Positions 34,701 to 64,000 of a stretch of 64,000 bases of DNA are shown piece after piece. The notes beneath the pieces are model-generated. The model did no database searches and was not told the origin of the DNA. It was given only the letters and a program-made list of their open reading frames with translations. Each line of letters starts with the position of its first letter. The first letter of the stretch is position 1. Where the stretch lies: contig CAYLKE010000004.1 in the NCBI GenBank assembly GCA_964384425.1, positions 6,511 through 70,510 on the forward strand, given 5' to 3'. A program made the position numbers and the translations under genes. The DNA comes from an uncultured Methanosarcinales archaeon. GTDB lineage: Archaea; Nanobdellota; Nanobdellia; Woesearchaeales; JAGLXL01.

Positions 34701-37070
34701 ATTGGAAAAGATGAATATTATTCGGGAAGTAGTGGTGCAGATAAATCTACTTTAGGTAGTGGTTGGAAATTTAATTACAGAGAAAATAGATTATATTTAG
34801 AAAATAATGGAAAATCTGGAATCTATTATCCTAAGGAAAGATTTTATTCTGGTAGAGATGAGCCAGGTGCATTAGGAATGTCTCATTTATTTGATATGTT
34901 TAGAGACGAGAAAAAAATATCCGAATTAAATCCTTATGTTGATTATATATCTCCATTTTTCCCACAACTTTGTTTAACTGGAATGAATGCAAGAATAAAT
35001 TTACTTAAGAATCATCTTAAAATGTTTCAAAAATGTATGGAACAAACAAAAACAACAGGAGATGCAAATTCAGCTACATGTAAGAAAATATTTAGTCAAG
35101 GATTATGTAATTTATTATCTACTTTATTTTTATCACAAGAAAAAGGATGTTTTGGAAAACCTATGTCTGCTTCACAAGGAAAAGATGGAGGAGCTCCTTC
35201 AACATTAGCTCTTTTAAGAACTGCTATAGGAAGTGCAACAAAAGATATGGAAAATAGTCTTAAAGCAGATTATGGAGAAGAAATGGGACTTGCATCCTAT
35301 CTTGAAGGAGGAAGTGTAAGTATTGCAAAAAACATTTGTCTTTTTGCATTAGGAATAGATATAAATCTTGATTTAGAAGCTATGGCAACTGTAACAATGG
35401 GATCTGAAGTTCCTTCAAGAACATCTGTATTAGTATTAACTAAATCAGGACAAGCAGGTGAAAGACAGATGCTTTCATTTAATCCAGCAAATGGAAATGC
35501 AATATATGCTTATGATGCTGCATGGACAATATCTTCTGGATGTGATTTAGATTACAACATATATCTATCTGCTGTTACAGACAAAGAAGTTAGAGAAAAT
35601 AATTTAGATTGTACAATAGTCAATGCAGCAATTGAAGGAAGTAATGGATGCGATAACTTTAATGGAAATACTGAAGTAACTTCTTTATTTTATTCTCAAT
35701 CAGGACTAGAAAATGGTCAATGGGTTGATAAATCAAAATCAGTTAATATAAATTCAAATAGAAGATATGATCATATAAAGATTGTGTTTAGACCAAAAAC
35801 TAATGTAGATATTTCAAAATGCTTTCCAAAAGAATATATTAAGGGAAATCAAGCTGTTATGTATTTCCCAATAAAAGAACAGTTTTCACTTGCAGATCAA
35901 TATGGATGTAGTGTGCAAAGTAATGGTGAATTTAAATGCACTGCTTTTGGAATAAGTGGCCAGAAACAAGCATGGATTCAGGATGTAAAATGTTTTAATC
36001 AAAGAACTTATGAATATGAAGATTGTAGTAGGGTTGAGATGCATTTGGGTGATCCTGTAAAATTAGCAGCAGAGGTTTATACTGATGGAAACAAATATTG
36101 TTTAGGTGGACAACTTACTGGAGATGAACAAAAGATATTGCCTGTTATAGGAGCAGGAAGACCTGAAACATTTGATGTTAAGATAACTCTTGATGATAAT
36201 ATTACCTTGCAAGATTTTATGTCTAATCTTAAGAATAGTGTGTGGGTAAGTAGTAAGGTTAATGTAAGTGCTGTGGGTATTGAATTTGTAAGTGCTGCAA
36301 GTGAAACAAAGAGTGGGGAAGTGAAGATAGGGTATCAGAAAAGTGGTTCACAATATAAGTTTACATTGCCTAAAAATAGTGGAATAAATTCAAAACCTTT
36401 TAATGATGGAGAATATTCTCTAACAGAAATTTCTCGTTATACAATAGATTATAATGGATATAAATTTAAGATAAAAGAATTCATTCCTTCAAAAGATAAA
36501 GGGTATTTTGTTATAAGAACTTCTGCAATAAGAGCAAGTGAGGGTTTTGGAAGAGATGCTTCTTTAAGTTTATATTATCCAAAGGAAGGGACAAGTACTT
36601 GTGTAAAAGGTCAGATGATATCTGTCACACTTCCAGAAGGAATGGCTTATCCAACTTCAAGAACAGTAAATCTTAAATTTAAGCAAACAGATGAAGTTAT
36701 TGAAGGAGCTCAGAAATATTATGACGCTGGAAAGAAAGCATTTAGAAAATGGGCAAGTAATTATACAGATAGTAAAACAGCTGAGTTTGCTATAAGTAAT
36801 TTTAAGATAGCTGCTACAAAAGAACCTCAAGGATTTTATGATCTTAATTCACAATTTGCAATAATTACAACTTATGGTTTATTGAGTGAGAAAGCAATTA
36901 ATGATAAAGAAAAATATAAGAAAAATATGTGTGATAATTATTTTGCAACAAAACAAAAATTTGATGCTGGTTATTATTCAAAATATCCAAAAAGAGATCA
37001 ATATGAATATACTTATGATTATGATAGAATAAAAGCATATTTTGATAAATATGGGGAGATATGCAAATAA
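31770..37070 (+). CDS. Giant secreted protein (1766 aa) with Ig/FN3-like beta repeats and a Cys-rich C-terminal half; possible class III-like N-terminus (KKG|F…)
   Basis: N-terminal MNIKKGFMIVVLFILSVTFVSGLV. Repeated ~90-aa beta-rich modules. About 60 Cys in the C-terminal 1200 aa. Confidence 0.75.
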   Translation: MNIKKGFMIVVLFILSVTFVSGLVTENIDVTSITDKSAVVSIQADETSTAIVRYWPEGGSVKQVRSSSSNKKHEITLGGLATNTKYYYNLTLYGEGDNIFNNNNVGQQFTFTTASEDNFAPFIDINLPDSYDRKQISILGKTEQNSHITLRVNNEVIGEMDDDVGEFYFHHVVLNENSQNDIYIEIEDNRGNKETYSKTIFVDTIPPNLNVTTSPEGDLINKSQITIIGNVSESSQIIVTINGEEKINTSGRSFESSVQLIDGRNYISVKAVDNAGWSTKYERTIIADFKDPEITEIRPKLDDMFFYEGSGYRSVSGKTEPNSKVYIYVDPILTPRPSDATIVGDYSYHTTTDENGNFNFDIVDLQHGKDIGRRFTIQETDDDLSITRNKKIDVYVTVEDKVGHKTTKKYTLSVGNCNEGSFVFAVNNLVDYQSPKYFSLERMKQGTEVFSFVLDLEYNGAAQNNKLKPSVEEIKDNYYQIRSVSLDSACKAGAYGESNSYTWACEVLPSRPKIAMPLNAEKTRWFFSYDLKKLSYEDFDKLSLIDMNITKNDTSVVSDKAVERFEELKKNALSVFNKDTNGELKFPFKVKISYQEKIFSKKLETKSQTSCTEVANYMDVVRTEDFPSLIPDNIIDDASKEINNSIKEIEYFQTNYLMKAIEYVNYACIGSTVSLFAFKIYRNFQELSAITACIAGESQGKTCSLGKNPVTAIDKLNKCYYTGSEDPIKKSKQDYVLGTCKTVQNPTGERKSLTSLTLTNPEFSIVQSAWNYEERLWYIMRWACDRTLCRVTPARWTEDRTIEDIRSIKSNEQKCAVDLGNVRSLRKIDSCGDNYKDLLQKSFQKQENCYKLDNCLYKLDPGNNKLILISKETKDKNNVTDCEKNLKYNKVGDSVYTSLQETCNQICGRAEGWEGKCMKKDFEKDSAYKKDTAYYSGGWTRDCATKDNQICVCYRNDTKIVSKEIKDVQKRGAAYAGIGKDEYYSGSSGADKSTLGSGWKFNYRENRLYLENNGKSGIYYPKERFYSGRDEPGALGMSHLFDMFRDEKKISELNPYVDYISPFFPQLCLTGMNARINLLKNHLKMFQKCMEQTKTTGDANSATCKKIFSQGLCNLLSTLFLSQEKGCFGKPMSASQGKDGGAPSTLALLRTAIGSATKDMENSLKADYGEEMGLASYLEGGSVSIAKNICLFALGIDINLDLEAMATVTMGSEVPSRTSVLVLTKSGQAGERQMLSFNPANGNAIYAYDAAWTISSGCDLDYNIYLSAVTDKEVRENNLDCTIVNAAIEGSNGCDNFNGNTEVTSLFYSQSGLENGQWVDKSKSVNINSNRRYDHIKIVFRPKTNVDISKCFPKEYIKGNQAVMYFPIKEQFSLADQYGCSVQSNGEFKCTAFGISGQKQAWIQDVKCFNQRTYEYEDCSRVEMHLGDPVKLAAEVYTDGNKYCLGGQLTGDEQKILPVIGAGRPETFDVKITLDDNITLQDFMSNLKNSVWVSSKVNVSAVGIEFVSAASETKSGEVKIGYQKSGSQYKFTLPKNSGINSKPFNDGEYSLTEISRYTIDYNGYKFKIKEFIPSKDKGYFVIRTSAIRASEGFGRDASLSLYYPKEGTSTCVKGQMISVTLPEGMAYPTSRTVNLKFKQTDEVIEGAQKYYDAGKKAFRKWASNYTDSKTAEFAISNFKIAATKEPQGFYDLNSQFAIITTYGLLSEKAINDKEKYKKNMCDNYFATKQKFDAGYYSKYPKRDQYEYTYDYDRIKAYFDKYGEICK

Positions 37071-40893: not shown

Positions 40894-41835
40894 TTATAAA
40901 TACCCAAAATAAACTTCAAAGAATTTCTTAAAAGTGTTTTCAAATTTATTTAAAATAAATCTAATCAACTTATTGTTATGTTTATTATCAAAAGCACTTA
41001 AACAATCAAAATATGCTTTTCTCATTGTTTTTCTTATTATCAATGGAGGATATCCTTTTTCCATTAACATAGCATTTAATAAAATTCTTCCAATCCTTCC
41101 ATTTCCATCTTCAAATGGATGAATGTTTTCAAATTTTCCATGAAATATCGAACATAGTTCTAAAATGTGTTTTTTATCTTTATTTTTTTCATACCATCTG
41201 ATTAGTTTATCTATTTCTTGTTCAACTTTTTCAGGAGGTGTTGTGCGGAGGTTAGTCATAACAATAAAATTAGGAAATTTTTTAAAACCAGTTGAGACAC
41301 CTGTATCTTTAACAATTTCTGAATGTAATTTAATTATTGATTTTTTATTGATTTTAATTTTTTTATTAAACAATAATTCAATAACATTTCTCATATTTCT
41401 TGTTTCATACACTTCCCTTAGGTCTTTATCTTTTGGAATAAGGTTATCTGTCATAAACATAGTTACATCTTTTAATGTTAATGAGTTTCCTTCAATTGCA
41501 TTAGTTTCATAAGTAAAGTTTGCTGTAAATCTGTCAAGAATGTCTTTTTTTTGGTTTTTAGTTAATTTATTCATTAAATGTTTATACTTAACTTTAATTG
41601 TTTCTATTTTTTTAATATTTATTAAAGAATTTTTTTCTTTAGTTTTTTCTATAAATTTGATATTTTCTTCTATTTCTTTATTTAACAAATATTCTTTTAC
41701 TTCTTTTTTATTTACATCAGATTTATTTTTAATCATTTTTGATACTTTCTTTATTTTTTGATTAGGTAATCTAAATGAATGTTCTGCATAAAGGTACTTA
41801 TGGGACTTAATTGTTTTAGTTTGGACACTAACCAT
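40894..41835 (-). CDS. Fic/Doc-family protein (AMPylation-type Fic domain)
   Basis: Canonical Fic motif HPFEDGNGRIGR within a helical domain. Confidence 0.8.
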   Translation of the reverse strand: MVSVQTKTIKSHKYLYAEHSFRLPNQKIKKVSKMIKNKSDVNKKEVKEYLLNKEIEENIKFIEKTKEKNSLINIKKIETIKVKYKHLMNKLTKNQKKDILDRFTANFTYETNAIEGNSLTLKDVTMFMTDNLIPKDKDLREVYETRNMRNVIELLFNKKIKINKKSIIKLHSEIVKDTGVSTGFKKFPNFIVMTNLRTTPPEKVEQEIDKLIRWYEKNKDKKHILELCSIFHGKFENIHPFEDGNGRIGRILLNAMLMEKGYPPLIIRKTMRKAYFDCLSAFDNKHNNKLIRFILNKFENTFKKFFEVYFGYL

Positions 41836-45233: not shown

Positions 45234-48200
45234 ATGAAAAAAAATACTAGATTTTTAAAAATCATTCAAATGTTTATTGTTTTTATTTTTATGTTTTCCA
45301 TATTTTCTAATTCTGCAAATGCTCAATTTGGTGCTGGAACTACTGGAGGTGTTGCTGCAGCAGCAGCTGGTGGAGGAGCAGCAACTATTTCTGTAGGAGC
45401 AGTTCTAGGTATTGTCGGTGGAGCAGCTGCGATATTAGCAATAACTGGTTATTTTGCTTATGAAAAGGGTTGGTTTAATTCAGATGAATACATGTTTTTA
45501 CATAGTGTTGCTAATGGAAAGACAGATGATGCTGTTGATTTCTTAAATCATCTTAGTAGGGATGAACTTATTGAATTGATTTGTGAGCATATGGATGAAT
45601 TGCTTGAAAATCTTAATAAAAAACGAAAGGAAATAACTGGTGATCTTCTTGATGTCAGTGAGGATGTTAATAAAGAAGATAAAGAAAATCAAGAAGAAGA
45701 AAACGCTATTAAAAATGGTGAAAGCACAGATGAAACTAGTCGACAAGAAGCAGCTAGAGAATCTCTTGAAAGTAGTGTTTGGAGCGAAACACTTGGTGAA
45801 TTAAACGCTACATTTGATAAAGAGATGAAAAATGCTGCAAAAGATGCAGTAACTGAAGATTATGATGATGCTATGGAAGCTGAAAAGAAAGCTGAACAAA
45901 AAGAGGCAGCTAAAAAAGCAGCAGAAGAACTTCAAGGTATTGTTAAAGGATTCAAAAAACAAAAAGAGGGTAGTTCTGAACTTAATGATAATACTATTAA
46001 ACAAGTTGCAGGTGTTTTGAATGATCCAGATATTTCACAAAAAGATAAACAAAGATTGTTTAATGCATTACCTGATTTTATTAAAAATAAAGTTAAACAA
46101 AAAGCATTATTGGGATTAAAGAATCATTACACTAAATTGATAAATAATTTTTCTAAATTTAAAGACAAGTTTGATGCGTTATGTGATGAGAGTGCTAAAG
46201 AAGGATATACTCATGACAACCTTATAACTGCAGTCGAAATATTATTTGAATATGATTTAGGCCCAAAGATTATGAATGGAGAGGCAGAACCTGGAGAAGC
46301 TTGGAAAAGAATAATGCAGATATGGGAAGGTTCTGATGCTATTTCTGGAGAAGATGAAGCACTTTTATTTAAGATGGCTGTTGCTGCAGCAAACAAACTT
46401 AATGAAGCTAGAAAAGCAGCAAAAGGAAATACTGCAGCAGAACAAAATCTTTTGGAGCAAGAATGTTCTATATATTGTGGTCTTCTTAATAAGCTAGGTT
46501 GTGATGCTTTCTTTGAAAACCTTAACAAGCAAGATATGAAAAAAGCAAGAAGAGTGGCTGAAGTTCTTTCTGAATGTGCAGACAAAAATATTGGTGGATG
46601 TTCAGCAACAGATTGTTTAAAGCCAGGTTCAATTGCATTTAAGGCAGCAACTGAAAATCTTTTGAAGTGTAATAAAAATCTTGTTAATCTTTTTAAAAAA
46701 GAAGTTGATAAGATAAAAGCTATGGAAGATGGTGATGCAAAAAATGATGCAATCAATAAAGCAAAGAACAAATACAAAAAACTTGCTCAAAAATTAGAAG
46801 AAGAATTTAAGAAAAAAGTCAAAGCTAAAGAATCAGTAAGTCAAGATGTTAGTGACAAAATAAAACAAATGAATGATTTAGTTAATAAACTTGAAGAAAT
46901 GGAAGATGCTGTTATTAGAAAGTTAAGTCTTAAGGTTGTTACAAGTATGATTCCTCCTGAAGCACATATAAATGATGCATTGGATAAACTTATGGAATGT
47001 GATTCTTCTTATATTGATGGTTTAATAGAGAATCTTGTTAAAAAAAGAAATGCTCTATTAAATGATAATGCAGAAGAAGATGATAATAAAAAGAAAGAAG
47101 AGAGGAATAAAGAGATAGAAAAATTAAATGATGCAATAAAAAAAGTAAAAGATTCAGTTGATAAAGTTAAAGATTGTTTAGAAAAAACTAAAAATGATTT
47201 AAATAATAATCCTTCTAAATATTATGGTGAAGGAAGTGATGTTGTTGATAATAAAAAACTCAAAGATAATCTAAGAAAATGTCTTGGAAAAGAAGGAATC
47301 AGAGAATATGTTGGTGTTTTAGGAAATGGAGAAAATATTGGAAATATTGTTAAGCAACTTGAAGCTAAGATAGATGCTTTAAGTAAAGTATCAAGTAATG
47401 CAGATCCTGGTAAGGAAAAAGATCTAGAGGATCCAAAAGGAACAAAAATACCTGCTAATGATATTGGACAAACATCTGAACCTGCACCAAGACCTGCGTT
47501 TAGAAATCAGATAACTCAAATCCTAAATGAGATTAGGGCTTGTCAGACAGAAAAGATAGATAAGTTAAAAGAAATGTTAAAAGATAAAGGTGCAGACGAA
47601 GGTGACAAACAATTGATTAGAAATACTATTGCTGCTTTGGAGAAAGAGAAAGCAAAAGAAGAAAAAAAATTAATTTTGATAGTTAATCGAAGATTAGTGG
47701 AAATCAATAAAAAAATTGAGAAATTAGAACAACTACTCAATGGGGTTAATGATATTCCTCAAAGTAATATTGGGAATGGACAATTAACACAGCTTCTGGA
47801 AGGTATTAAAGCATGTAATGTTGATGCTGAAGATTTATTGAAAGAAGCAAAAGAGAGAGGTGTTTCTGAAGCAGATGCTAATGCAATAAAAGCTGCAATG
47901 AAAGATATGGAAGACAAAGTTAAGAGATTGGAAAAAGAAAAAAATACATTAGAAGCTGAATTAGAAACAGAAGAAGATGATTATGCTCCCGATGAATGGG
48001 GACCAGAAGAGGATAAAGAAAAAAAGATAAAAGATTTACGAGATAAAATAAAAGAAAAAGAAGAAGAGATTAAAAAATACAAACACAAATTAGAAGTATT
48101 ACAAGAAATATTGGATGAATACACTGATTACGCTACATTTGATAATAAAAAGCAGTTTACTGGATTATTAGTAGAAATAGCTAAATGTAATATTGATGCT

Positions 48201-49487
48201 GAAAGATTAAAAGTAATTGCAGATAATTATAAATTAAATGAAAAAGATAGAAAAGAAATAGAAAAAGCTAGAGAAAAGATTAAGGAAGAAATTAAGAGAT
48301 TAGAGAAAGAAAAAGAAGAAGAAGAAGATAAATTTCTGAATTCTGATAATGTTGATTCAACTTCAACAAAACTTTTAGAACTAGAAGAACAATTAGCTAA
48401 ATATAAAAATAAACTAGAAATATTAAATCAAATATTGGAAGAAGATAGAGGTCAAAAACTAATAGGGATTATTACACTTAAACTAAAAAAAAGTGAAGAA
48501 AAACAAACAGAAGAACAAGCAGAACCACAAGAAACACCAATAATAACTTCTTCAGAAATAGAAGAACCAGCTGAGCAAGAACAAGTATATGTTAATGGTG
48601 AGTTACAATTGTCTGAAGAAGCTGTAAGTCTTTTAAGAGATGTACAAGAAGACTGGAGTGTTCTAAGTATGGTTGGAGATGCATTTATGGCTGCAATTAA
48701 TCCAATACCTGGAAATGATATAATAAGTGATATAGAATCCCTAGTAGTCTCAGAAACAGAATTAGAATATCCCGAACAACTATATGAAGAAGAGCAACAA
48801 GTATCACAAGAACCAACAGGTGATACAGACGCAGATGGAATACCACAAGAACCAACAACACCAGAAGAACCAACAATATCTTACACACAACAAGAGCTTG
48901 AAACAGTTGAATATCTTCTTGAAAGAACAGCTAGTGGAGAACTATCTGCTGTACTTGAATTAAATGACTTGGTAAATGCAAATCCAGGATTAAGAGACAC
49001 ATTTGAAGTATTAAATGAACAAGTTGACAATGCATATATGACATTATTTGAAAACTATGCAGGTGACCTATATACACAAATAGGAGATAATATCTTTGAA
49101 ATGAAAATGGATGTTTCAGGAGAATCTGCTGACATGCTTACAATGTTTGATGAGGCAATAACAGGAGAAGATAATACAGCAAGTGAAATAGTAAACACTT
49201 ATTCATTTGATGCTCAAGTATTAGGTAATGATGGTGTAACTGTACTTATTCCAGATTGCATGGCAGAAGAATCTGTAATATGTGGTGTTGAATATTGTTA
49301 TGGCATATATAATGGAGAGGCATTTTCAGTTGATGCTCCTAGAGAAGATGTAGTATCAGCAGTAACTACAGAAAATGGATTTAGCATAGAAAATGGACAA
49401 TTAGTTGTTGAACCAGGACAAAAAGACATAAATAACTACGTAATGTTATTTAAAAATCCAATAAGCAGAATAGTACCTTTAATATAA
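45234..49487 (+). CDS. Giant (1417 aa) membrane-anchored coiled-coil protein (N-terminal signal + Gly/Ala-rich TM, Cys-containing head, >900 aa Lys/Glu-rich coiled coil, acidic C-terminal domain)
   Basis: GAGG Shine-Dalgarno upstream. N-terminal signal peptide, then GAGTTGGVAAAAAGGGAATISVGAVLGIVGGAAAILAITGYFAY. Long heptad-like K/E-rich stretches. Confidence 0.75.
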   Translation: MKKNTRFLKIIQMFIVFIFMFSIFSNSANAQFGAGTTGGVAAAAAGGGAATISVGAVLGIVGGAAAILAITGYFAYEKGWFNSDEYMFLHSVANGKTDDAVDFLNHLSRDELIELICEHMDELLENLNKKRKEITGDLLDVSEDVNKEDKENQEEENAIKNGESTDETSRQEAARESLESSVWSETLGELNATFDKEMKNAAKDAVTEDYDDAMEAEKKAEQKEAAKKAAEELQGIVKGFKKQKEGSSELNDNTIKQVAGVLNDPDISQKDKQRLFNALPDFIKNKVKQKALLGLKNHYTKLINNFSKFKDKFDALCDESAKEGYTHDNLITAVEILFEYDLGPKIMNGEAEPGEAWKRIMQIWEGSDAISGEDEALLFKMAVAAANKLNEARKAAKGNTAAEQNLLEQECSIYCGLLNKLGCDAFFENLNKQDMKKARRVAEVLSECADKNIGGCSATDCLKPGSIAFKAATENLLKCNKNLVNLFKKEVDKIKAMEDGDAKNDAINKAKNKYKKLAQKLEEEFKKKVKAKESVSQDVSDKIKQMNDLVNKLEEMEDAVIRKLSLKVVTSMIPPEAHINDALDKLMECDSSYIDGLIENLVKKRNALLNDNAEEDDNKKKEERNKEIEKLNDAIKKVKDSVDKVKDCLEKTKNDLNNNPSKYYGEGSDVVDNKKLKDNLRKCLGKEGIREYVGVLGNGENIGNIVKQLEAKIDALSKVSSNADPGKEKDLEDPKGTKIPANDIGQTSEPAPRPAFRNQITQILNEIRACQTEKIDKLKEMLKDKGADEGDKQLIRNTIAALEKEKAKEEKKLILIVNRRLVEINKKIEKLEQLLNGVNDIPQSNIGNGQLTQLLEGIKACNVDAEDLLKEAKERGVSEADANAIKAAMKDMEDKVKRLEKEKNTLEAELETEEDDYAPDEWGPEEDKEKKIKDLRDKIKEKEEEIKKYKHKLEVLQEILDEYTDYATFDNKKQFTGLLVEIAKCNIDAERLKVIADNYKLNEKDRKEIEKAREKIKEEIKRLEKEKEEEEDKFLNSDNVDSTSTKLLELEEQLAKYKNKLEILNQILEEDRGQKLIGIITLKLKKSEEKQTEEQAEPQETPIITSSEIEEPAEQEQVYVNGELQLSEEAVSLLRDVQEDWSVLSMVGDAFMAAINPIPGNDIISDIESLVVSETELEYPEQLYEEEQQVSQEPTGDTDADGIPQEPTTPEEPTISYTQQELETVEYLLERTASGELSAVLELNDLVNANPGLRDTFEVLNEQVDNAYMTLFENYAGDLYTQIGDNIFEMKMDVSGESADMLTMFDEAITGEDNTASEIVNTYSFDAQVLGNDGVTVLIPDCMAEESVICGVEYCYGIYNGEAFSVDAPREDVVSAVTTENGFSIENGQLVVEPGQKDINNYVMLFKNPISRIVPLI

Positions 49488-49569: not shown

Positions 49570-50184
49570 ATGAAAAACAAAATACTTAAATTATCATTCT
49601 TAGCAATGTTGGCTTATTCAGGATGTAATTCTCCAGGTCTTACTGAAAGACAACATCAAGAAGATCTTAAAAGACACGAAAGAAAGATGTATCTTAAAGC
49701 TTTTAAAAAGAAATTTGATGATCCAAAACAACAAGATTTATGGGATTCTATAGATAATATTCATTTATTGCTTATAGATAATGATGTAGCATTAGATTAC
49801 AAAGAAGTTATAAATAAACTTACAGAAAGAGGTTTCTATAAAACAGGAGATGATGATACTATAAGAGATAGATTTAAAATAATTATAGATGAAAAATATT
49901 ATGGCTCATTAAAAGAACATTTTCCTTCTGCTAAGAAGAATACTAGATGTTTTAATCCAAATCATTTTTATAGGCATCTTGTTATAACAGATGTAAAACA
50001 TAATCTTTATAGAGATGAAATTACAGGAAATAAAATACAACCTACCATAGAAGAGATAGTGAATGAAATTCCTTTCATGAGACCAGGTTATTATAAAAAT
50101 TCTATAAAGGAAAGATTAAATAAAGATAATGTTATAGTAATTCCAGAAAAAATATATCAACCTAAAGGACAAGCAGTAGATTAA
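49570..50184 (+). CDS. Lipoprotein (lipobox …AYSGC), paralog A
   Basis: Signal peptide plus Cys lipobox. About 45% identical to ORF 50273..50896 (…KQQ.LWDSIDNI..L..DNDVAL.YKEV.N.LT.RGFYKTGDD…GQ.VD). Confidence 0.6.
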   Translation: MKNKILKLSFLAMLAYSGCNSPGLTERQHQEDLKRHERKMYLKAFKKKFDDPKQQDLWDSIDNIHLLLIDNDVALDYKEVINKLTERGFYKTGDDDTIRDRFKIIIDEKYYGSLKEHFPSAKKNTRCFNPNHFYRHLVITDVKHNLYRDEITGNKIQPTIEEIVNEIPFMRPGYYKNSIKERLNKDNVIVIPEKIYQPKGQAVD

Positions 50185-50272: not shown

Positions 50273-50896
50273 ATGAAAAAAACACTTACTACTTTATTAT
50301 CTGGATTATTATTAGCTTATTCTTCATGCTCTTCTCAACAAATAACAAAAGAAGAAAAAGAAAAACAATTCAAAGAAAGAATGGAGACATATAAAAAACA
50401 AAGATATTTCAGAGCTTTTAATAGAAATTTTAAAGATCCAAAACAACAAAAATTATGGGATTCTATTGACAATATAAATGTTTTATTTGTTGATAATGAT
50501 GTTGCATTAGAATACAAAGAAGTGTTAAATGAATTAACAGATAGGGGATTTTATAAAACAGGTGACGATATAAGTTTAAGAGATAATTTTATAATATTTA
50601 TAGATCACAAATATAAAGACTTACGAAAACATTTTGATAAATGCGAAGTAAAAAAAGAACCTTATATTCAAGAAAAATTATATAGGCATATTTTCATAAC
50701 AGATATAAAAAACAATCCTTATGTTGATGAATTTTCTGGAAAAATAATACAGCCAACAATAAAAAATATATTATTTGACATTCCATTTATGACTAATAGT
50801 TATTATAAGTATTCTTTTTATAATAGATATAATAAAAATAATGTTAAAGTTATTTCTGAACCATTTAGATCTATGAGGGGTCAGGGAGTGGATTAA
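50273..50896 (+). CDS. Lipoprotein (lipobox …AYSSC), paralog B
   Basis: Tandem duplicate of ORF 49570..50184. Confidence 0.6.
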   Translation: MKKTLTTLLSGLLLAYSSCSSQQITKEEKEKQFKERMETYKKQRYFRAFNRNFKDPKQQKLWDSIDNINVLFVDNDVALEYKEVLNELTDRGFYKTGDDISLRDNFIIFIDHKYKDLRKHFDKCEVKKEPYIQEKLYRHIFITDIKNNPYVDEFSGKIIQPTIKNILFDIPFMTNSYYKYSFYNRYNKNNVKVISEPFRSMRGQGVD

Positions 50897-50971: not shown

Positions 50972-51493
50972 ATGGATAATATCTTTAAAACAAATCAATA
51001 CAGAATGTTAGAGTTATTTATAGAAAATCCCAGAATAGATTATTCTGCTAGAGGTATGGCTAGAGAATTAGGGATAAATCATGTTACAGTGTTAAAATAT
51101 TTAAAAGAGTTATTAAAATTAGATTTAATAAAAGTAAAAAATGCTCTATATCCTCTTTATTATGCAAACACTCAAAATAAAAATTATCAATTTTATAAAA
51201 TAAATAAAATTGTTTTTGATATTAAACAATCTAGGGTTGTCGAATATATACATAATAAAACTTTAGCTTCTGCAATAGTATTATTTGGTAGTTGTTCAAA
51301 AGGAACTTATAATAAAGAAAGCGATATAGATATATTTGTTGAATCTACTCAAAAGAAACTTAATTTATCTAAATATGAGAAAATATTAAAGAAAAAAATA
51401 AATCTTATTTTTCATTCTGATATACAAAAACTTTCCGAGAATCTGAGAATAAATGTTATAAATGGTATTACTTTATATGGCAATATAAGGTAA
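50972..51493 (+). CDS. Minimal nucleotidyltransferase (MNT) with N-terminal winged-HTH (second copy)
   Basis: NTase motif LFGSCSKGTYNKESDIDIFVE. N-terminal HTH-like segment (ARGMARELGINHVTVLKYLKEL). Confidence 0.65.
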   Translation: MDNIFKTNQYRMLELFIENPRIDYSARGMARELGINHVTVLKYLKELLKLDLIKVKNALYPLYYANTQNKNYQFYKINKIVFDIKQSRVVEYIHNKTLASAIVLFGSCSKGTYNKESDIDIFVESTQKKLNLSKYEKILKKKINLIFHSDIQKLSENLRINVINGITLYGNIR

Positions 51494-51498
51494 TCAAT

Positions 51499-51921
51499 AT
51501 GGATGAAATATCATGGAAAGAATGTATAGAAAATGGAATTATTTTTGAAACTATACCTGATTTAGAAAGATCATTACAATTATTGTCTATGGCTGAGACA
51601 AGATTTCTTTTTTGGAATAAAAAAGTTAATAAAAAATTTATTACATTGAAAGTTGAAGGATACTACGAAATCATTAAAGAACTTATTTTTGCTTTAATAT
51701 ATAAAAATGGTTTTAATTGTAAAAATCATATTTGTTTAATTGCATATTTACAAGAAAAACATTCTGAATTAATTTATGAAATTGATAAGATCAATGAATT
51801 GAGAAAAATAAGAAATGATATATCTTATCGTGGATTTTATGTTGATAAAGATTATTTAGATAGAAATGAATTAGAGTTTAAGAATATTATAAATATCTTA
51901 ATAAATAAAGTTAAACAATAA
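51499..51921 (+). CDS. HEPN-domain protein, partner of MNT (second pair)
   Basis: Starts 6 nt after the MNT stop. Helical, with an R-x-R-N-x3-Y motif (LRKIRNDISYRG). Confidence 0.5.
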   Translation: MDEISWKECIENGIIFETIPDLERSLQLLSMAETRFLFWNKKVNKKFITLKVEGYYEIIKELIFALIYKNGFNCKNHICLIAYLQEKHSELIYEIDKINELRKIRNDISYRGFYVDKDYLDRNELEFKNIINILINKVKQ

Positions 51922-52038: not shown

Positions 52039-53253
52039 ATGATAAAAAGACATTATTTTGAAGATATTGAAAAAGAACTTGATTTTAAAGAAATAACTGT
52101 GTTAATTGGTAGTAGAAGAGTTGGAAAAACTACTATAATGCAACACTTGTATGAAAAAGTAAAAGATAGGGCTGTTTATTTAACATTTGATGATCTTGAA
52201 GTTTTGGATCTTTTTGAAAATAATGAAAAATTATTCAAAGAACAATATGTAGATACAAATGATATAATCTTCATAGATGAGATACAATATTCTAAACAAT
52301 CAGGTAGAATATTAAAGTATCTTTATGATACAACTAAAAAGAAATTTATTGTATCTGGTTCATCTACTCCAGAAATATCTATTCATTCAATTTCATATCT
52401 TGTTGGAAGAATGAGAGTAATAGAGGTTTTTCCAATAAAATTCAATGAATTTATTCAATATAGAGCAAGTAAAAAATCTATTCTTTTAAACAAGATAAGA
52501 TCACTTAAAGAATTTAAACAATTAAAAAATTATTTTGAAGAATTTTTAAAATTTGGAGGATATCCAAGAGTTATATCTTTAAAATATGATGAAAAGAAAA
52601 AACATCTTTCATCATTAGTAAACACATATCTATTAAAAGAGATAAAAGACATTATAAAATATAAAAATGTCATGGAATTTGAAAGGTTTTTAAGATATCT
52701 ATCAAATAAAGACGGAAATATAATTAACAAATCTGTTATTTCTAGAGAATTTGGATTAAATAGAAAAAAAATATCAGAAATAATAGATACTTTAATTAAA
52801 ACTTATGTTTTATACGAAGTTAAACCTTTTCTAAAAAGAAAAACAAAAGAACAAATAAAAAATAATAAAATTTATTTTCAAGATACAGGTTTTAAAAATT
52901 CATTGGCAAATAATTTTAATGATCTTGATTTTAAACATGATAAAGGAATGATTCTAGAAAATTTTATTTTAAATTCATTGATACGGAAAGGATATGATGT
53001 TAAATTTTGGAATTATAAAAACAGATATGAAATGGATTTTGTAATAGAGAAAGATAATAAAATTGTGGGGATTGAGTGCAAATCAAGGTTAACTGATGCA
53101 ACAATAAGTAGTTCTTCAAAAGAATTTAAGAAAAGATTTTCACCATATAAAATATATGTTGTTAATGAGTCTATTGATAATAAGAAAGATAATATTGAAT
53201 TCATAAACTATTATAACTTCATAGTCCTTTTAGAAAATAATAAATTATTCTAA
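52039..53253 (+). CDS. AAA+ ATPase with C-terminal DUF4143-like PD-(D/E)xK nuclease-fold domain
   Basis: Walker A GSRRVGKTT; Walker B-like IIFIDEIQ; C-terminal …YEMDFVIEKDNKIVGIECKS (D…E.K). Confidence 0.7.
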   Translation: MIKRHYFEDIEKELDFKEITVLIGSRRVGKTTIMQHLYEKVKDRAVYLTFDDLEVLDLFENNEKLFKEQYVDTNDIIFIDEIQYSKQSGRILKYLYDTTKKKFIVSGSSTPEISIHSISYLVGRMRVIEVFPIKFNEFIQYRASKKSILLNKIRSLKEFKQLKNYFEEFLKFGGYPRVISLKYDEKKKHLSSLVNTYLLKEIKDIIKYKNVMEFERFLRYLSNKDGNIINKSVISREFGLNRKKISEIIDTLIKTYVLYEVKPFLKRKTKEQIKNNKIYFQDTGFKNSLANNFNDLDFKHDKGMILENFILNSLIRKGYDVKFWNYKNRYEMDFVIEKDNKIVGIECKSRLTDATISSSSKEFKKRFSPYKIYVVNESIDNKKDNIEFINYYNFIVLLENNKLF

Positions 53254-58986: not shown

Positions 58987-61170
58987 TTATGTCATAGTTC
59001 CTACCATTACATATCCTGCAATAGAATTAAATAATATCATAACAACCAGAGCTATTGCACAATACATAAGTGTACTATTTGTTAAATTTTTTCCAAGTTG
59101 ATATCTTTCCATTGTATCATCTTCTCCAAATTCAATACCATTACTTATGATTGTTAATATGAATATTAACTCAACAACATATATTCCAATAATTATTTGA
59201 AAATAATATATTGGAAGACCTGTTCCAAACATATCCACTATTCCTGTAAATTGAGATGCTTGTCCCTGAACTTGTCCACCACTAACTAATTTTGTAAGCT
59301 GTCCACTTAATCCTGCTAGTATTGTTGTAATCATTGATGTGATACCCACAACTATTCCTGATATTGCAGGTGTCATAAACTTTATCTGAGATTTCATTGA
59401 AGAAAGTGTTTCTCCTAATAAATCTCTTAATCTCTCATCAACTCTATGCATCTCTCTTATGTAACGAGACATTGAAAGTAATGCTTGTGCAGCTATCTTA
59501 GGACCTTTTTTAGAACTTTCAACAAGTATTTTCATTGAACTTTTAATTATCTCAGAAGGAAACATACTTAATGTTCCTGTTTCTTTATTAAATAGGGCTT
59601 CTTCTATACTCATGCCCATTTTTATCATGTTCTCTACAGTACGCTTAAAAAATTGTCCTGTTGTACTATCTCCTAATTCTGCTGCAACTTTCCTAAATGC
59701 AACTTCTACAGGTAGTCCATCTCCTAAACGATTACCTAATTGAAATAAAGCTGATGCAAATTCTTCTTCTAATTCTTTTGTTTTATCTCTTATTTTTATT
59801 ACATTTTTACTACTTAATTTATAATAAATACCTGCACTTATTCCTACTGCTAATGTTATGAATAAAGACATTATACCTGCTCCTAATCCAAATGGGCCTA
59901 TTTTTTCTGAAGCATCACATGCAATTTTTCCAGGAGGACAGATATAATTTAAGAACTTTGATGTTTCAGTTATTGCAATATCAAATGCAGGATCTAAAAA
60001 ATGAATAATCATTGGAAATAATCCTATTAATAGTAAACCCGCACCTATTAATATTGCAATATGTTTTGCCTTTATTGTTATTTCAGAAAATCCTAATTTT
60101 ATTGTAATACCTTTAATAATAGATTTTTTATTTTTTTCTTTTCCTCCTCCACTTGGACGTTTTTCAAGTATACGTCTTCCCATATAATAAACTCCTACAG
60201 GAAGAAGAATGTTGTATATTACAGCAATATAAAGAGCAATTCTTCCAGGAGAAAGTGATTCATCACTCATAAAACTTACAATTAAAGGCAACATGACTAA
60301 TCCTAAAATAGGAAGAATAACTCCTAACATATTTAACATAGTCATGGGAGTACCCATATTATGTGCATAATGAAGCATTTTTTCATATGTTTCAGAAAGA
60401 AGTACATCAAGAGATTTATCTAATAAATCAAGACGACGTGATTCAGATCCTTCATATAATGAACTTACAATAAGATGAAAAACTTCTATAAATTCTCTAT
60501 TAGTTTCTTTCCATCTTTCTAAATAATGATTAATTGATTCAGTTATATTTGAAAATTCTTGTGTTTCTACATCCCAAAGTATTTTTTTCATATCTAATGC
60601 AAGAGGAGGTTTAAGATGAATAGATGCAAACTCAATTGCTCTTTCAAGATTAGATGTATGTTTCATATATGTAACAATATAAAAAATACATAAAATCATT
60701 TGATTAGATGTACGCATTTTCCATTTAGTTGATAAAAAATCTGGAACTTTTTGAAGTATAAAAAATAAAACAGCTGCTACAATAAGAGATAGTAATAAAA
60801 GAAACATAGAGCCCAATAATCCAAAAGAAATAAATGCACCTAAAAAGAACACAATAATTGCTGTAATATAACTCAAAGATATTGCTCCTTGTGGAGTTAT
60901 ACCAAGATGAGCTTCTTCTATTCTTATATTTAAATTTTTTACTTGTTTATCAGTTATAGGAAATTTTATTTTTTCAGAATAATTACATGCTTTTTCATAA
61001 TAAGTTAATCTTTTAGACATAAATGATTTTTTGAAATTTTCATATTCAACAGTTATTGGACGTTTACTTTTTTCAAATTGTTCTATCTTTTTATCTGGAT
61101 TTGTACTTTTTTCTAACTCATTCTTTATTCTTTCCTTATACCTGCTGATTATTTTTTCTTCATCAGCCAT
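58987..61170 (-). CDS. FlaJ/TadC (GspF-like) polytopic membrane platform protein of a type IV pilus/archaellum-type system
   Basis: 727 aa with at least 9 hydrophobic helices and two soluble helical domains. 8-nt overlap with the upstream secretion ATPase gene, the gene order expected for FlaI-FlaJ. Confidence 0.55.
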   Translation of the reverse strand: MADEEKIISRYKERIKNELEKSTNPDKKIEQFEKSKRPITVEYENFKKSFMSKRLTYYEKACNYSEKIKFPITDKQVKNLNIRIEEAHLGITPQGAISLSYITAIIVFFLGAFISFGLLGSMFLLLLSLIVAAVLFFILQKVPDFLSTKWKMRTSNQMILCIFYIVTYMKHTSNLERAIEFASIHLKPPLALDMKKILWDVETQEFSNITESINHYLERWKETNREFIEVFHLIVSSLYEGSESRRLDLLDKSLDVLLSETYEKMLHYAHNMGTPMTMLNMLGVILPILGLVMLPLIVSFMSDESLSPGRIALYIAVIYNILLPVGVYYMGRRILEKRPSGGGKEKNKKSIIKGITIKLGFSEITIKAKHIAILIGAGLLLIGLFPMIIHFLDPAFDIAITETSKFLNYICPPGKIACDASEKIGPFGLGAGIMSLFITLAVGISAGIYYKLSSKNVIKIRDKTKELEEEFASALFQLGNRLGDGLPVEVAFRKVAAELGDSTTGQFFKRTVENMIKMGMSIEEALFNKETGTLSMFPSEIIKSSMKILVESSKKGPKIAAQALLSMSRYIREMHRVDERLRDLLGETLSSMKSQIKFMTPAISGIVVGITSMITTILAGLSGQLTKLVSGGQVQGQASQFTGIVDMFGTGLPIYYFQIIIGIYVVELIFILTIISNGIEFGEDDTMERYQLGKNLTNSTLMYCAIALVVMILFNSIAGYVMVGTMT

Positions 61171-64000
61171 ATTTCTTAGCCTCTTTTTTTATAAGTTCTT
61201 TATATTCAAAAAAAACTCTTTCATTATCTATAAATCCTTTATCTTTTTTAATTTTATCAATTGTTTTATGAAAATAATCATTGCATCTTAATACAAAATC
61301 TGCTTCAAGAAGATCAGGATTTTTTAATTTATCAGATAATTTAACTATTTCTTCTTTGCATTTTGCTCTCAATTGTATATTTTCCCATACTGCATTCCAG
61401 TTTCCTGCAAAATCAGATATATTCGATGCAATTAATTTAAGAACTTCTGAATCTCCTGATGATAGTTCGTCTGTAATTTCTAATTGGTCTGTAATAGAGT
61501 TGTATTTCATAAGATCAACAAAACCTTTCTCTCTCATAGGATCATCTGTCCATTTTTTTCTTACTTCTGTTATTTTAAGAACTCTTCTTTTTTTCTTAAG
61601 ACCTGCAGCACTCTTAACAGGATTAGATATTACAATTATATCTGTTGCTTTGAAAGAAGTTTTTGGAACACCAATATCATTAACAACTCTATCAAAAACA
61701 CCATAAGGTGAATCACCATGAATTGTTCCTGCAACTACATTTGCAGCTGCACCAACTCTCATTGCTTCATAAAGTGATTTCGCTTCACTGTTATGAAGAA
61801 GTATGCTTCCTGATCCGCCAATAAATCTTTGTGTTGATTTAACAGAAAGATCATAAACATATTCGGGCTTATGAAGATTTATTGTTTCTATTGATTTTAT
61901 TCTATCAATAAAAAAATCTCCGTGAGCAAAATCATATAATTCATCAGTACATTTTACTTCTTCTGTAAGTTTTTTTAGATAATTCTTTGAACAGCATTTT
62001 GTCTTTCTTAAATGTCTGTATTTTCTTGGAAGTACAACATTTTTTTCTAATTCTTTTGGGTTAAAGACAACAGAGTCATTTTTTGAATGTGAAAATGAAT
62101 TTGATATTATTTTTGGTTTTTTATGAGTAAATCCTATGTTTTCAAGAAAGTATTTTATATATTTTCTTAATTTTATCTCAGCAATATAATATTTCCTATT
62201 TTCTTTTTTATTGGGCATTCTTTCAATTAGTTTGCATACTATGCCTTGAGTTAATAGAGCATAATTCACATCTTCAACTAGTTTTTTAGAAGTTGAATAA
62301 TATCTTATTATATTACCGCACTTTTTTAGAGAAGAAATTGATCCATCTCCACTATACATTCCTTTTAGAAGAGCACATATTTTATTTTTATTTAATCCAT
62401 AAACAAATTCAGGTATTCTTTTATGCAGACTTGTTTTGCCACAACCAAAATACAATAAAAGATCTATTAATGGTTTTGACATTATAAATATCTGAACCGA
62501 AGAACCTAATCCTTTAATTTTTCTTTGTGATACTTGAAGACCTAATTCTTTCTGACAAATATATTTTATATCTTCAATAATCTTTGGTTTTGAATTTGTG
62601 ATTTGAATTTTATTATTGTCGATGTTACCTTCTGCGAGATAATATCCAATAAGTCTTAAAATATTTTCATTGATTGGAAATTTGGCAGGAATACTATTAG
62701 AAGTACCTCTTTTTATTCTTAAGTCCTCAAGATTGTATTTTATCTTTGCTCTTTTCATTAGTTTTAAAAATGATTTTATGGGGATTCTTGTTTTTTGTGT
62801 TGAAAGAAGATACCTATAAATATCTGGGATTTTGCATATTTTACTTGCTTTTTTCCAGTTAAGTATTTTTATTGCTTTCCTTATATATGGTTCTGCATTT
62901 TCAACACGATAATTTTCTTTGAATATTTCAAGAAGATTAATACTATCAAAATTTTTGAATCCACAAGGTATTTTTGAAGGTATTATTATTGGATCATCAG
63001 ACATTAATTGATTTGTATTTATAGCTGCTATTTTAAAATCTACATGAGTAAATACACTATGATCTGGTGTTACAATAACTGATCTTCCTGATTTAGTTGT
63101 AAGTTTTATTAATTTGCTGGATTTAGGGTGTTTTATAAATCCTGAAATTGGTTTCAATTCCATTTTATTTTCATTTGTCAATGTGGGAAGATAAACATTT
63201 TTTAGATCTTTTCCTTCTATGTTTTTAATTGCAGTTCTTCTAGTAATTCCTTTTTCAATTATCACAACTTCTTGATCTCCCCTTAAAGAGCTTCTAACTT
63301 CTCCTACAATTAATGCACTATCTCCTAAACGAAGAGTTGTTCTAATTCCTATTGTTGCAGAAACTTCACTACTTTCTTTTCCAGCAAGTGCTGATGCAAC
63401 TTTAAGTGGTTGTATGTTGTAACCTAATTTCATAAGGGAATCAGTTGGAAGTTCTAGAGTGTTATGTGCTAGGATATTATCTGAAATAAAATTTTCATTT
63501 TCTGGAACTGAAAAATCATAAACCCAATTTTGTTTATTTTTTAATTTTTTAATTGAAACAATTTCGTCCCAAAAAATATCTGAATTAGATATTTTTTTAA
63601 GATATTTACCTAACTCATTTTTTTTGTCTATCAGATAATCTGCAATCTTATCTAGTTTATTTATTCCAATTTTATTGTTTCTTGTAATGTAATCTTGACT
63701 ATTAAAGATTTTCTTAGGACAAATTGACTTTAATTTATTCAATATGGTTTTATCTAATTTAACACTATCTGAACTAGCATGAGTTGATTTTCTTTTTGAT
63801 AAAATATTTAATTTCTTATTTTTATACTCTTGTAAAAATCCAATATATTTTTTAAACTTATCAATACTTTCCTGAGAACTGATTCTTCCATCTTTAGTTC
63901 TGTCATTATCTTTTGATTTTCTTTTTCTTAGTCTATTTATCCTAAATATTATTCCCCAATTAAGTAAAAGTGTTTGAATATCTTCCAATAGATTCATTGA
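61163..64000 (-). CDS. FlaI/VirB11-family secretion ATPase (N-terminus beyond window) interrupted by two inteins
   Basis: The frame stays open to the window edge, so the M at 63997 is internal. Extein motifs: …RLGDSALIVGEVRS | SEAKSLYEAMRVGAAANVVAGTIHGDSPYGVFDRV (Walker B, then a His-box-like motif), plus a C-terminal domain. Confidence 0.7.
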   Translation of the reverse strand, partial: SMNLLEDIQTLLLNWGIIFRINRLRKRKSKDNDRTKDGRISSQESIDKFKKYIGFLQEYKNKKLNILSKRKSTHASSDSVKLDKTILNKLKSICPKKIFNSQDYITRNNKIGINKLDKIADYLIDKKNELGKYLKKISNSDIFWDEIVSIKKLKNKQNWVYDFSVPENENFISDNILAHNTLELPTDSLMKLGYNIQPLKVASALAGKESSEVSATIGIRTTLRLGDSALIVGEVRSSLRGDQEVVIIEKGITRRTAIKNIEGKDLKNVYLPTLTNENKMELKPISGFIKHPKSSKLIKLTTKSGRSVIVTPDHSVFTHVDFKIAAINTNQLMSDDPIIIPSKIPCGFKNFDSINLLEIFKENYRVENAEPYIRKAIKILNWKKASKICKIPDIYRYLLSTQKTRIPIKSFLKLMKRAKIKYNLEDLRIKRGTSNSIPAKFPINENILRLIGYYLAEGNIDNNKIQITNSKPKIIEDIKYICQKELGLQVSQRKIKGLGSSVQIFIMSKPLIDLLLYFGCGKTSLHKRIPEFVYGLNKNKICALLKGMYSGDGSISSLKKCGNIIRYYSTSKKLVEDVNYALLTQGIVCKLIERMPNKKENRKYYIAEIKLRKYIKYFLENIGFTHKKPKIISNSFSHSKNDSVVFNPKELEKNVVLPRKYRHLRKTKCCSKNYLKKLTEEVKCTDELYDFAHGDFFIDRIKSIETINLHKPEYVYDLSVKSTQRFIGGSGSILLHNSEAKSLYEAMRVGAAANVVAGTIHGDSPYGVFDRVVNDIGVPKTSFKATDIIVISNPVKSAAGLKKKRRVLKITEVRKKWTDDPMREKGFVDLMKYNSITDQLEITDELSSGDSEVLKLIASNISDFAGNWNAVWENIQLRAKCKEEIVKLSDKLKNPDLLEADFVLRCNDYFHKTIDKIKKDKGFIDNERVFFEYKELIKKEAKKYG
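61790..63289 (-). other. Intein 2 (500 aa) with LAGLIDADG homing-endonuclease domain, inserted after VGEVRS of the ATPase
   Basis: Block A SLRGDQEVVI; block B TPDHSVFT; LAGLIDADG motifs LIGYYLAEGNI and LLKGMYSGDGSI; C-terminal …VYDLSV…GSILLHN followed by +1 Ser. Confidence 0.7.
63461..64000 (-). other. C-terminal part of intein 1 (start lies beyond the window), ending …NWVYDFSVPENENFISDNILAHN with +1 Thr
   Basis: Intein blocks F/G (VYDFSV…ILAHN|T). The downstream extein resumes with TLEL…, as expected for an insertion right after the P-loop GKT. Confidence 0.5.

Follow-up and report, generated by a model that had tools for sequence, protein, structure and literature searches.

Two LAGLIDADG inteins in the gene for a DPANN ATPase of the T2SSE/VirB11/FlaI superfamily

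Organization of the locus

The stretch of DNA analyzed here (the window) comprises 64,000 nucleotides (nt) of contig CAYLKE010000004.1, from an archaeon placed by GTDB within the Woesearchaeales, and at its end it carries, on the minus strand, the 3′ part of a gene for an ATPase of the T2SSE/VirB11/FlaI superfamily that is interrupted by two inteins. A single open frame of 945 codons runs from position 64000 down to a stop codon at 61163-61165, and the surrounding DNA has about 27% G+C. Since this frame is still open at the end of the window, the 5′ part of the ATPase gene lies beyond position 64000, and the ATG at 63997, which had been listed as the start of the open reading frame (ORF), is an internal Met and not the start of the gene. 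The frame is made of the C-terminal fragment of a first intein (intein 1), a middle extein, a complete second intein (intein 2) and a C-terminal extein (C-extein), the latter terminating in a family-specific C-terminal domain (Table 1; residues are numbered from the first codon of the frame or, within intein 2, from its Ser1, and a slash denotes a splice junction).

Table 1. Features of the intein-containing ATPase gene and of the adjoining gene (aa, amino acids).
Feature	Sequence	Position	Strand	Remarks
Intein 1, C-terminal fragment	ends ILAHN/T	63461-64000	-	aa 1-180
Intein 1 block F	WVYDFSVPE	63500-63526	-	
Intein 1 block G	FISDNILAHN	63461-63490	-	
Middle extein, 57 aa	ends LIVGEVRS	63290-63460	-	aa 181-237
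Second half of Asp box	TLELP	63446-63460	-	middle extein, from Thr+1 of intein 1
Walker B	LIVGEVRS	63290-63313	-	end of middle extein
Intein 2, complete, 500 aa	SLRGD … LLHN/S	61790-63289	-	aa 238-737
Intein 2 block A	SLRGDQEVV	63263-63289	-	includes Ser1
Intein 2 block B	TPDH	inside 63050-63079	-	T74-P-D-H77 in VIVTPDHSVF
Intein 2 LAGLIDADG motif 1	LRLIGYYLAEGN	62624-62659	-	acidic residue E220
Intein 2 LAGLIDADG motif 2	ALLKGMYSGDGS	62339-62374	-	acidic residue D315
Intein 2 block F	EYVYDLSVKS	61835-61864	-	
Intein 2 block G	RFIGGSGSILLHN	61790-61828	-	
C-extein, 208 aa		61166-61789	-	aa 738-945, followed by the stop codon
Start of C-extein	SEAKSLYEAM	61760-61789	-	from Ser+1 of intein 2
His-box region	VVAGTIHG	61715-61738	-	C-extein
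Polytopic membrane protein, 727 aa		58987-61170	-	directly downstream, overlaps the ATPase gene by 8 nt

Intein-specific models match the ORF: Pfam identifies Intein_splicing (E = 5.3e-28) and LAGLIDADG_3 (E = 4.8e-25), NCBIfam identifies intein_Cterm at aa 159-181 (E = 1.2e-10) and intein_Nterm at aa 245-318, and many NCBIfam models for ‘intein-containing’ proteins match as well. The first-pass annotation of this DNA had described a complete LAGLIDADG intein of 500 aa and the tail of a second one in the same frame, and both are recovered here: the former to its exact length, by the parse and by the Pfam and NCBIfam models, and the latter by the intein_Cterm match and by its similarity to 36 inteins found at the same site in other genomes.

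A second line of evidence comes from the exteins. The conceptually spliced product, of 265 aa, is 62-72% identical over 99% of its length to intein-free T2SSE/VirB11-family ATPases from Woesearchaeota/Nanoarchaeota, with no gaps at either junction. When a large protein collection was searched with this product, 997 matches were obtained, and the top 120 came from Woesearchaeota/Nanoarchaeota, with 61-72% identity over 93-100% of the query, and were mostly unbroken at both junctions; the annotations among them correspond to ATPases of type II secretion systems, type IV pili or type IV secretion systems (T2SS/T4P/T4SS), or of the TadA, VirB11 or FlaI type. The middle extein also aligns with CpaF, AfGspE2 and FlaI, and the spliced product aligns across the junction of intein 2 with the structures of these three proteins (ivgevrsseakslyeam against IVGEVRGPEAFDLLQAM and, over a longer stretch, ivgevrsseakslyeamrvga against IVGEVRGPEAFDLLQAMNTGH of CpaF). 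It is therefore very probable that the gene encodes a precursor of an estimated ~1,780 aa for a ~760-aa T2SSE ATPase of the hexameric-motor type, interrupted by two canonical class-1 LAGLIDADG inteins.

The two inteins and their insertion sites

Intein 2 has the features of a class-1 intein, that is, Ser1 (aa 238 of the frame), a T-x-x-H block B, the block F Asp, the terminal His-Asn pair and a Ser at position +1, together with a two-motif LAGLIDADG endonuclease domain with a catalytic acidic residue in each motif; the solved structure nearest to intein 2 is that of PI-PkoII. The alignment with homologs locates it between Walker B and the SEA…GTIHG His-box region, as had been proposed (this position is denoted here as site 2), where intein-free homologs read …LRLGDSALIVGEVRS/xEAxALYEAMRVGA…, the general form of the empty allele being …GDSALIVGEVRS-T/K-EA…. 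In an alignment of 95 site-2 inteins, conservation reaches 95% or more at 89 positions, and intein 2 has retained 84 of these, including S1, T74, H77, E220, D315, D480, H499 and N500, while Ser1, His-Asn and Thr+1 are present in all 90 of the other site-2 inteins. An alternative start one residue earlier (VGEVR/SS…) was rejected, because the extein would then be one residue shorter than in all homologs; the start at Ser238 is the sole parse that restores the length found in them (VGEVRS-x-EA).

The portion of intein 1 contained in the window corresponds to the sequence after LAGLIDADG motif 2, and thus comprises the tail of the endonuclease domain followed by blocks F and G. When aligned with 36 complete inteins from the same site (496-522 aa), it begins at column 368 of 557, in the last third of the alignment, and the full-length intein is estimated at ~520 aa, presumably of the LAGLIDADG type. 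Of the 30 positions with a conservation of 90% or more in these inteins, the fragment has lost none, including the block F Asp, the His-Asn pair and Thr+1, and is 40-63% identical to them, the nearest one being P0212 (63% over 180 aa); Ser1, His-Asn and Thr+1 occur in 36 of these 36 inteins. The insertion point is the Asp box (IED/TLELP; site 1), 21 residues past the Walker A Lys, and intein-free homologs read GTRSSGKTSLLGSLLVEIMRRYRIITIED/TLELP in the alignment, within the empty-allele form …RIITIED-TLELP…. The possibility of a split intein was discarded, as the frame, in which a start site is lacking, runs through endonuclease-domain sequence up to the window edge and can be aligned with inteins that are contiguous. 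The third-position G+C of the inteins (0.13-0.14, compared with 0.09-0.11 in the exteins) matches that of the exteins, which indicates that the inteins have long resided in this kind of genome.

The host ATPase and its putative membrane partner

The motifs of the ATPase that fall inside the window are Walker B, the His-box region (AGTIHG) and the TLELP half of the Asp box. The remaining features can be deduced from intein-free homologs, such as P0253 (761 aa), which aligns to AfGspE2 (2OAP) over residues 219-659 (E = 1.2e-25), and also to CpaF and FlaI. The best NCBIfam model for P0253 is FlaI (NF058587), although with 132.6 bits, far from the equivalog cut-off of 550, which indicates that it is not a FlaI/ArlI equivalog. 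Of the FlaI/VirB11-like nature assigned to the protein in the first-pass annotation, membership in the T2SSE/VirB11/FlaI superfamily is thus retained, whereas equivalence to FlaI is not. Neither archaellin nor other fla/arl genes adjoining the ATPase gene were identified in the window. On the basis of these comparisons, we consider the ATPase to be a DPANN-specific member of the PilT/VirB11/GspE/FlaI superfamily, with an extra N-terminal region predicted at ~220 aa, probably participating in the assembly of a surface structure resembling a type IV filament. The size of the mature protein had been given as about 440 aa or more, and this must be corrected to ~760 aa (about 750-761 aa).

The membrane protein encoded downstream is a conserved companion: in 74 of 85 related loci, the gene that immediately follows that of the ATPase encodes a homolog of it. 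None of the Pfam families exceeds its threshold in this protein, the match to T2SSF reaching 16.2 bits where 25.2 are required (E = 0.011 at aa 477-587); the matches found in 7 of 21 of its homologs are sub-threshold as well (best E = 0.0015), and a profile of the family had no match when compared with the PDB. From the conserved adjacency, it is probably a divergent platform protein of the T2SSF/FlaJ/TadC type.

Occupancy of the insertion sites in the family

The intein state of the family was initially classified among the top 120 protein clusters matching the whole 945-aa fragment. About 90 clusters, of ~1,260 aa, contained an intein only at site 2, in all cases with Ser1 and Thr+1, and about 28, of ~1,280 aa, only at site 1; both sites were occupied in a single cluster, P0171 (1625 aa, partial; GCA_016784245.1, a metagenome-assembled genome of Nanoarchaeota). 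The C-extein, which lies downstream of both sites and therefore favours no intein state, was used alone as a query against 1.84 billion cluster representatives, yielding 215 matches at E ≤ 1e-10. Three of the proteins found, P0248 (1783 aa), P0261 (1781 aa) and P0286 (1772 aa), are complete and carry two inteins, located at exactly the two sites of the window and separated by a spacer of 56-57 residues. Sites 1 and 2 were both empty in 40 of 69 long cluster representatives, including three that carry an intein at a third site of the family, the P-loop (GTRSSGK/C…HN/TS). P-loop inteins were found in P0244, P0245, P0252, P0254, P0257 and P0281; they have Cys1, span 188-711 aa (one is a mini-intein without endonuclease) and are followed by TSLLGS. 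Among the best 80 of ~570 GTDB species loci, a ranking biased against site-2 inteins, site 1 was occupied in four and neither site in the other 76.

A scan of metagenomes with the whole fragment provided two loci only, namely L081, with a site-2 intein that contains a frameshift, and L082, which is intein-free (779 codons). The frameshift in L081:1-2129 (JGI Ga0180009_10024216), a close relative, affects the region of the second LAGLIDADG motif, near nt 915-1023, and is due to an error in sequencing or else to decay of the endonuclease. In another locus, L084 (JGI Ga0118719_1003334), two further selfish elements were observed at less than 10 kb from the intein-bearing ATPase gene: another intein-containing gene that extends over the end of the locus (L084:1-1468, minus strand) and a free-standing LAGLIDADG_3 ORF of 234 aa (L084:18119-18823, plus strand).

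These data confirm the notion, advanced in the first-pass annotation, that this ATPase is a hot spot for inteins, with three occupied sites in the family. The host, described there as a reduced-genome archaeon, is of the DPANN type, given that Woesearchaeota and Nanoarchaeota are the source of all close homologs. They also indicate that to qualify the presence of two inteins as unusual was an overstatement: canonical LAGLIDADG inteins in a secretion/pilus ATPase are of a known kind, inteins are frequent at each of the two sites in public DPANN genomes, and double alleles are already public in P0171, P0248, P0261 and P0286. Indeed, some proteins of the family are labelled in JGI as ‘VirB11/archaellum biosynthesis ATPase/intein/homing endonuclease’. 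A search of the literature found no account of inteins in this DPANN ATPase.

Mobility and assembly of the pair

Two types of comparison suggest that these inteins are mobile. Intein 2 shares as much as 77% identity with its relatives, whereas the exteins of those same relatives are 63-68% identical to that of the window, and the two values are uncoupled: in P0179 the extein is 68% and the intein 42% identical, while in P0150 the figures are 54% and 74%, respectively. This mismatch indicates that the inteins have spread by horizontal homing. Moreover, the nearest relatives of the inteins in the window (77% for intein 2 and 63% for intein 1) all come from single-intein alleles, while the inteins of the four public double alleles are only 39-49% identical to those of the window. 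Consequently, the pair in the window seems to be the product of an independent assembly, for which the simplest route would be that a second intein invaded an allele already occupied by a first.

A further aspect concerns the residue at +1. In 237 intein-free homologs, the +1 position of site 2 is Lys in 83, Thr in 61 and Glu in 21, the rest being Gly, Pro, Ser, Val and others, so that Thr or Ser is present in only ~30% of the empty alleles; in contrast, site 1 and the P-loop site have a nearly invariant Thr or Thr/Ser at +1. Most empty alleles of site 2 would therefore need co-conversion of this codon to receive a functional intein. Taken together, these comparisons allow a broader, still tentative proposal, which we advance as possible rather than probable: that the ~760-aa ATPase is a multi-site intein hot spot across DPANN archaea, apparently undescribed in the literature searched, and that double alleles, including the one in the window, have been assembled repeatedly and independently from different sub-lineages of inteins.

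Comparison with known systems

Inteins are not new to ATPases of this kind. Table 3 of Novikova et al. 2016 (PMC4760082) lists 21 inteins in archaeal VirB11-type (COG0630) and five in CpaF-type (COG4962) proteins. As presented there, they coincide with those of the window in the superfamily of the host (P-loop secretion/pilus ATPases of the T2SSE type), in their archaeal origin and in their location within ATPase motifs; they differ in that the survey is older than most DPANN genomes, while the host protein in the window is the ~760-aa DPANN version. The best-studied examples are the KlbA inteins (MJ0781 of Methanocaldococcus jannaschii and four orthologs), which belong to class 2 and are represented by a 168-aa mini-intein without endonuclease, with Ala1 and Cys+1 (PMC2807308). 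The flanks of the KlbA intein can be derived from the 2JMZ chain in the PDB (2JMZ/2JNQ), MNTGHDG/ALAYDEP…GFAVS(A)/(S)SGTLH, and place it in the His box (NTGHDG/CSGT). The host protein is again VirB11-like, a secretion ATPase of archaea, and the HINT fold shows a distant relationship (E = 1.6e-08), but the KlbA site lies ~12 residues (when aligned through CpaF) to 17 residues (to the GT of the His box) downstream of site 2, and the inteins in the window, being class 1, with Ser1, Thr/Ser+1, ~500 aa and LAGLIDADG motifs, are not of the KlbA class-2 type. The superfamily therefore presents at least four insertion positions, that is, the P-loop, the Asp box, the post-Walker-B position and the His box of KlbA, the first three lying within ~80 residues.

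The closest known equivalents are the double alleles P0171, P0248, P0261 and P0286, which share with the window both sites, the spacer of 56-57 aa, Ser1 in both inteins and a mature protein of 750-761 aa, and differ from it in having Thr instead of Ser at +1 of site 2. Outside this family, the most similar situation is that of the neighbouring inteins MCM-a and MCM-d of Haloferacales, described by Turgeman-Grott et al. 2023 (PMC10643990): here too, two adjacent endonuclease-bearing inteins occupy one ATPase domain, and the variable +1 at site 2 parallels the co-conversion barrier of the MCM-d intein, whose site likewise has a variable +1. The host protein and the lineage are different. The survey of multi-intein genes in that work covered two DPANN genomes, and none was found in them (PMC10643990).

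Proposed mechanism and alternative interpretations

The features described above fit a model in which each intein would excise itself after translation through the four steps of the standard pathway, in which an N-O acyl shift at Ser1 is followed by transesterification to the Thr or Ser at +1, by cyclization of the terminal Asn, helped by the penultimate His, and by a final O-N shift. Splicing would rejoin the ATP-binding motifs, and the ATPase would remain inactive until both inteins had been removed. We infer that the endonucleases are also active and that they would cleave alleles lacking the intein, at these very conserved sites, so that the intein is copied into them (homing). Such homing into empty alleles would account for the patchy distribution of inteins in the family.

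Some observations weigh against this interpretation. The N-extein, Walker A, the ‘IED’ half of the Asp box and blocks A and B of intein 1 lie outside the window and, because the 5′ part of the gene is not within it, the N-terminal nucleophile of intein 1 is taken from its homologs. The spliced fragment scores 20.3 bits with Pfam T2SSE (PF00437), below the cut-off of 24.9; homologs at 62-72% identity do have a precomputed PF00437 match and read GTRSSGKTS…IIEDTLELP. Finally, block G of intein 2 is unusual (IGGSGSILLHN/S, compared with IGGFGGI(L/M)LHN/T in 91-94 of 95 relatives), since of the five conserved positions that differ in this intein, three are at or beside the C-terminal junction: F493S, G495S and T+1S. 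The efficiency of splicing could be lower as a result, and these clustered substitutions (the +1 codon is at 61787-61789) may be either co-adapted or mildly defective.

The last point gives rise to the most serious of the alternatives, namely that one or both inteins are decaying or splicing-defective, the gene being in effect a pseudogene or a source of little active ATPase. The three substitutions are almost never seen among 94 relatives, and the frameshift in the endonuclease domain of the L081 site-2 intein, if not a sequencing error, indicates that decay occurs in the lineage. However, the 945 codons are uninterrupted in DNA of such low G+C content, and all catalytic residues are intact (S1, T74, H77, D480, H499, N500, a nucleophilic +1 and the acidic residues of both LAGLIDADG motifs). 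Ser works as a +1 nucleophile in class-1 inteins. In addition, the extein shows good conservation, and the gene for the downstream partner, which overlaps translationally with that of the ATPase, is intact. Decay is thus an unlikely explanation, and that of two functional inteins is preferred.

Conditional splicing switches have been proposed for the RadA and DnaB inteins, and by analogy the inteins described here might have been domesticated to gate filament assembly by temperature, redox state, metals or a ligand. This would agree with the fact that both inteins break catalytic motifs, which would make ATPase activity strictly dependent on splicing, with the recurrent occupancy of sites 1 and 2 in the family, and with the conditional splicing documented for other ATPase-domain inteins (PMC4513877, PMC5790916, PMC6195587). 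Nevertheless, no sign of sensing is apparent in the sequence; Ser1 and Ser/Thr+1 leave no redox-sensitive Cys at the junctions; most members of the family have no intein, both in the GTDB loci (with the bias against site 2 already mentioned) and among the cluster representatives (where those empty at sites 1 and 2 include the three with a P-loop intein); and selfish homing agrees with the patchiness of the distribution and with the mismatch between intein and extein identities. We regard such a switch as improbable, somewhat more so than decay. Lastly, the first-pass annotation had placed the partial intein at GKT/T of Walker A and, even though the P-loop is given as the commonest intein site in ATPases generally (PMC4760082) and P-loop inteins do exist in this family, that placement is practically untenable, because TLELPTDSL, which follows the splice site, comes after …RIITIED in every intein-free homolog, the P-loop inteins of the family are followed by TSLLGS… and not by TLELP, and the fragment resembles the 36 Asp-box inteins.

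Other features of the window

Beyond the ATPase gene and its partner, the window looks like part of a DPANN chromosome, with genes for ThrRS, a TYW2/Trm5 methyltransferase, a Fic protein, a nucleotidyltransferase and an AAA_14/DUF4143 ATPase. Four giant ORFs on the plus strand (852-4457, 1201 aa; 5967-14750, 2927 aa; 31770-37070, 1766 aa; and 45234-49487, 1417 aa) probably encode large surface proteins, as in DPANN genomes; the only Pfam match above threshold is Glucodextran_B, in the 1766-aa protein, with a sub-threshold TcfC in that of 2927 aa. They are followed by two tandem paralogous ORFs of ~205 aa each, without a Pfam match (49570-50184 and 50273-50896, plus strand), which have lipoprotein-like N-termini (…AYSGC and …AYSSC) and share the motifs DPKQQxLWDSIDNI… and RGFYKTGDD. 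At 50972-51921 (plus strand), a nucleotidyltransferase gene (NTP_transf_2) is followed after 5 nt by an ORF of 140 aa without a match, and the two could form a toxin-antitoxin-like pair. The AAA_14/DUF4143 ATPase gene lies at 52039-53253 (plus strand) and that for the Fic/DOC protein further upstream, at 40894-41835 (minus strand). Gene orientation and GC skew change at ~53-54 kb, and no tRNA genes or Rfam families at the gathering threshold were found in the 64-kb window.

Implications

These findings leave the current understanding of inteins unchanged. In practical terms, the gene should be annotated as encoding one precursor of ~1,780 aa that gives rise to a mature ATPase of ~760 aa, and in the databases many proteins of this family are fragmentary or have been assigned starts inside or after inteins. 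Four points deserve to be retained: the pair's independent assembly, the existence of several sites in the family, the +1 residue that varies at site 2, and the atypical block G found in intein 2. The family, with its three sites, its many alleles that are empty, single or double, and its variable +1 at one of the sites, constitutes a usable comparative system. If it is indeed a hot spot in which double alleles have been assembled repeatedly, it would provide a data set on homing interference between neighbouring inteins and on the co-conversion barrier outside the haloarchaeal MCM. For the organisms themselves, the ATPase and its membrane partner are conserved across genomes of the Woesearchaeota/Nanoarchaeota type, and in alleles such as that of the window the activity of the ATPase would hinge on two splicing events; a less likely extension is that splicing would gate the assembly of the filament on the surface of DPANN cells by which they may attach to their hosts.

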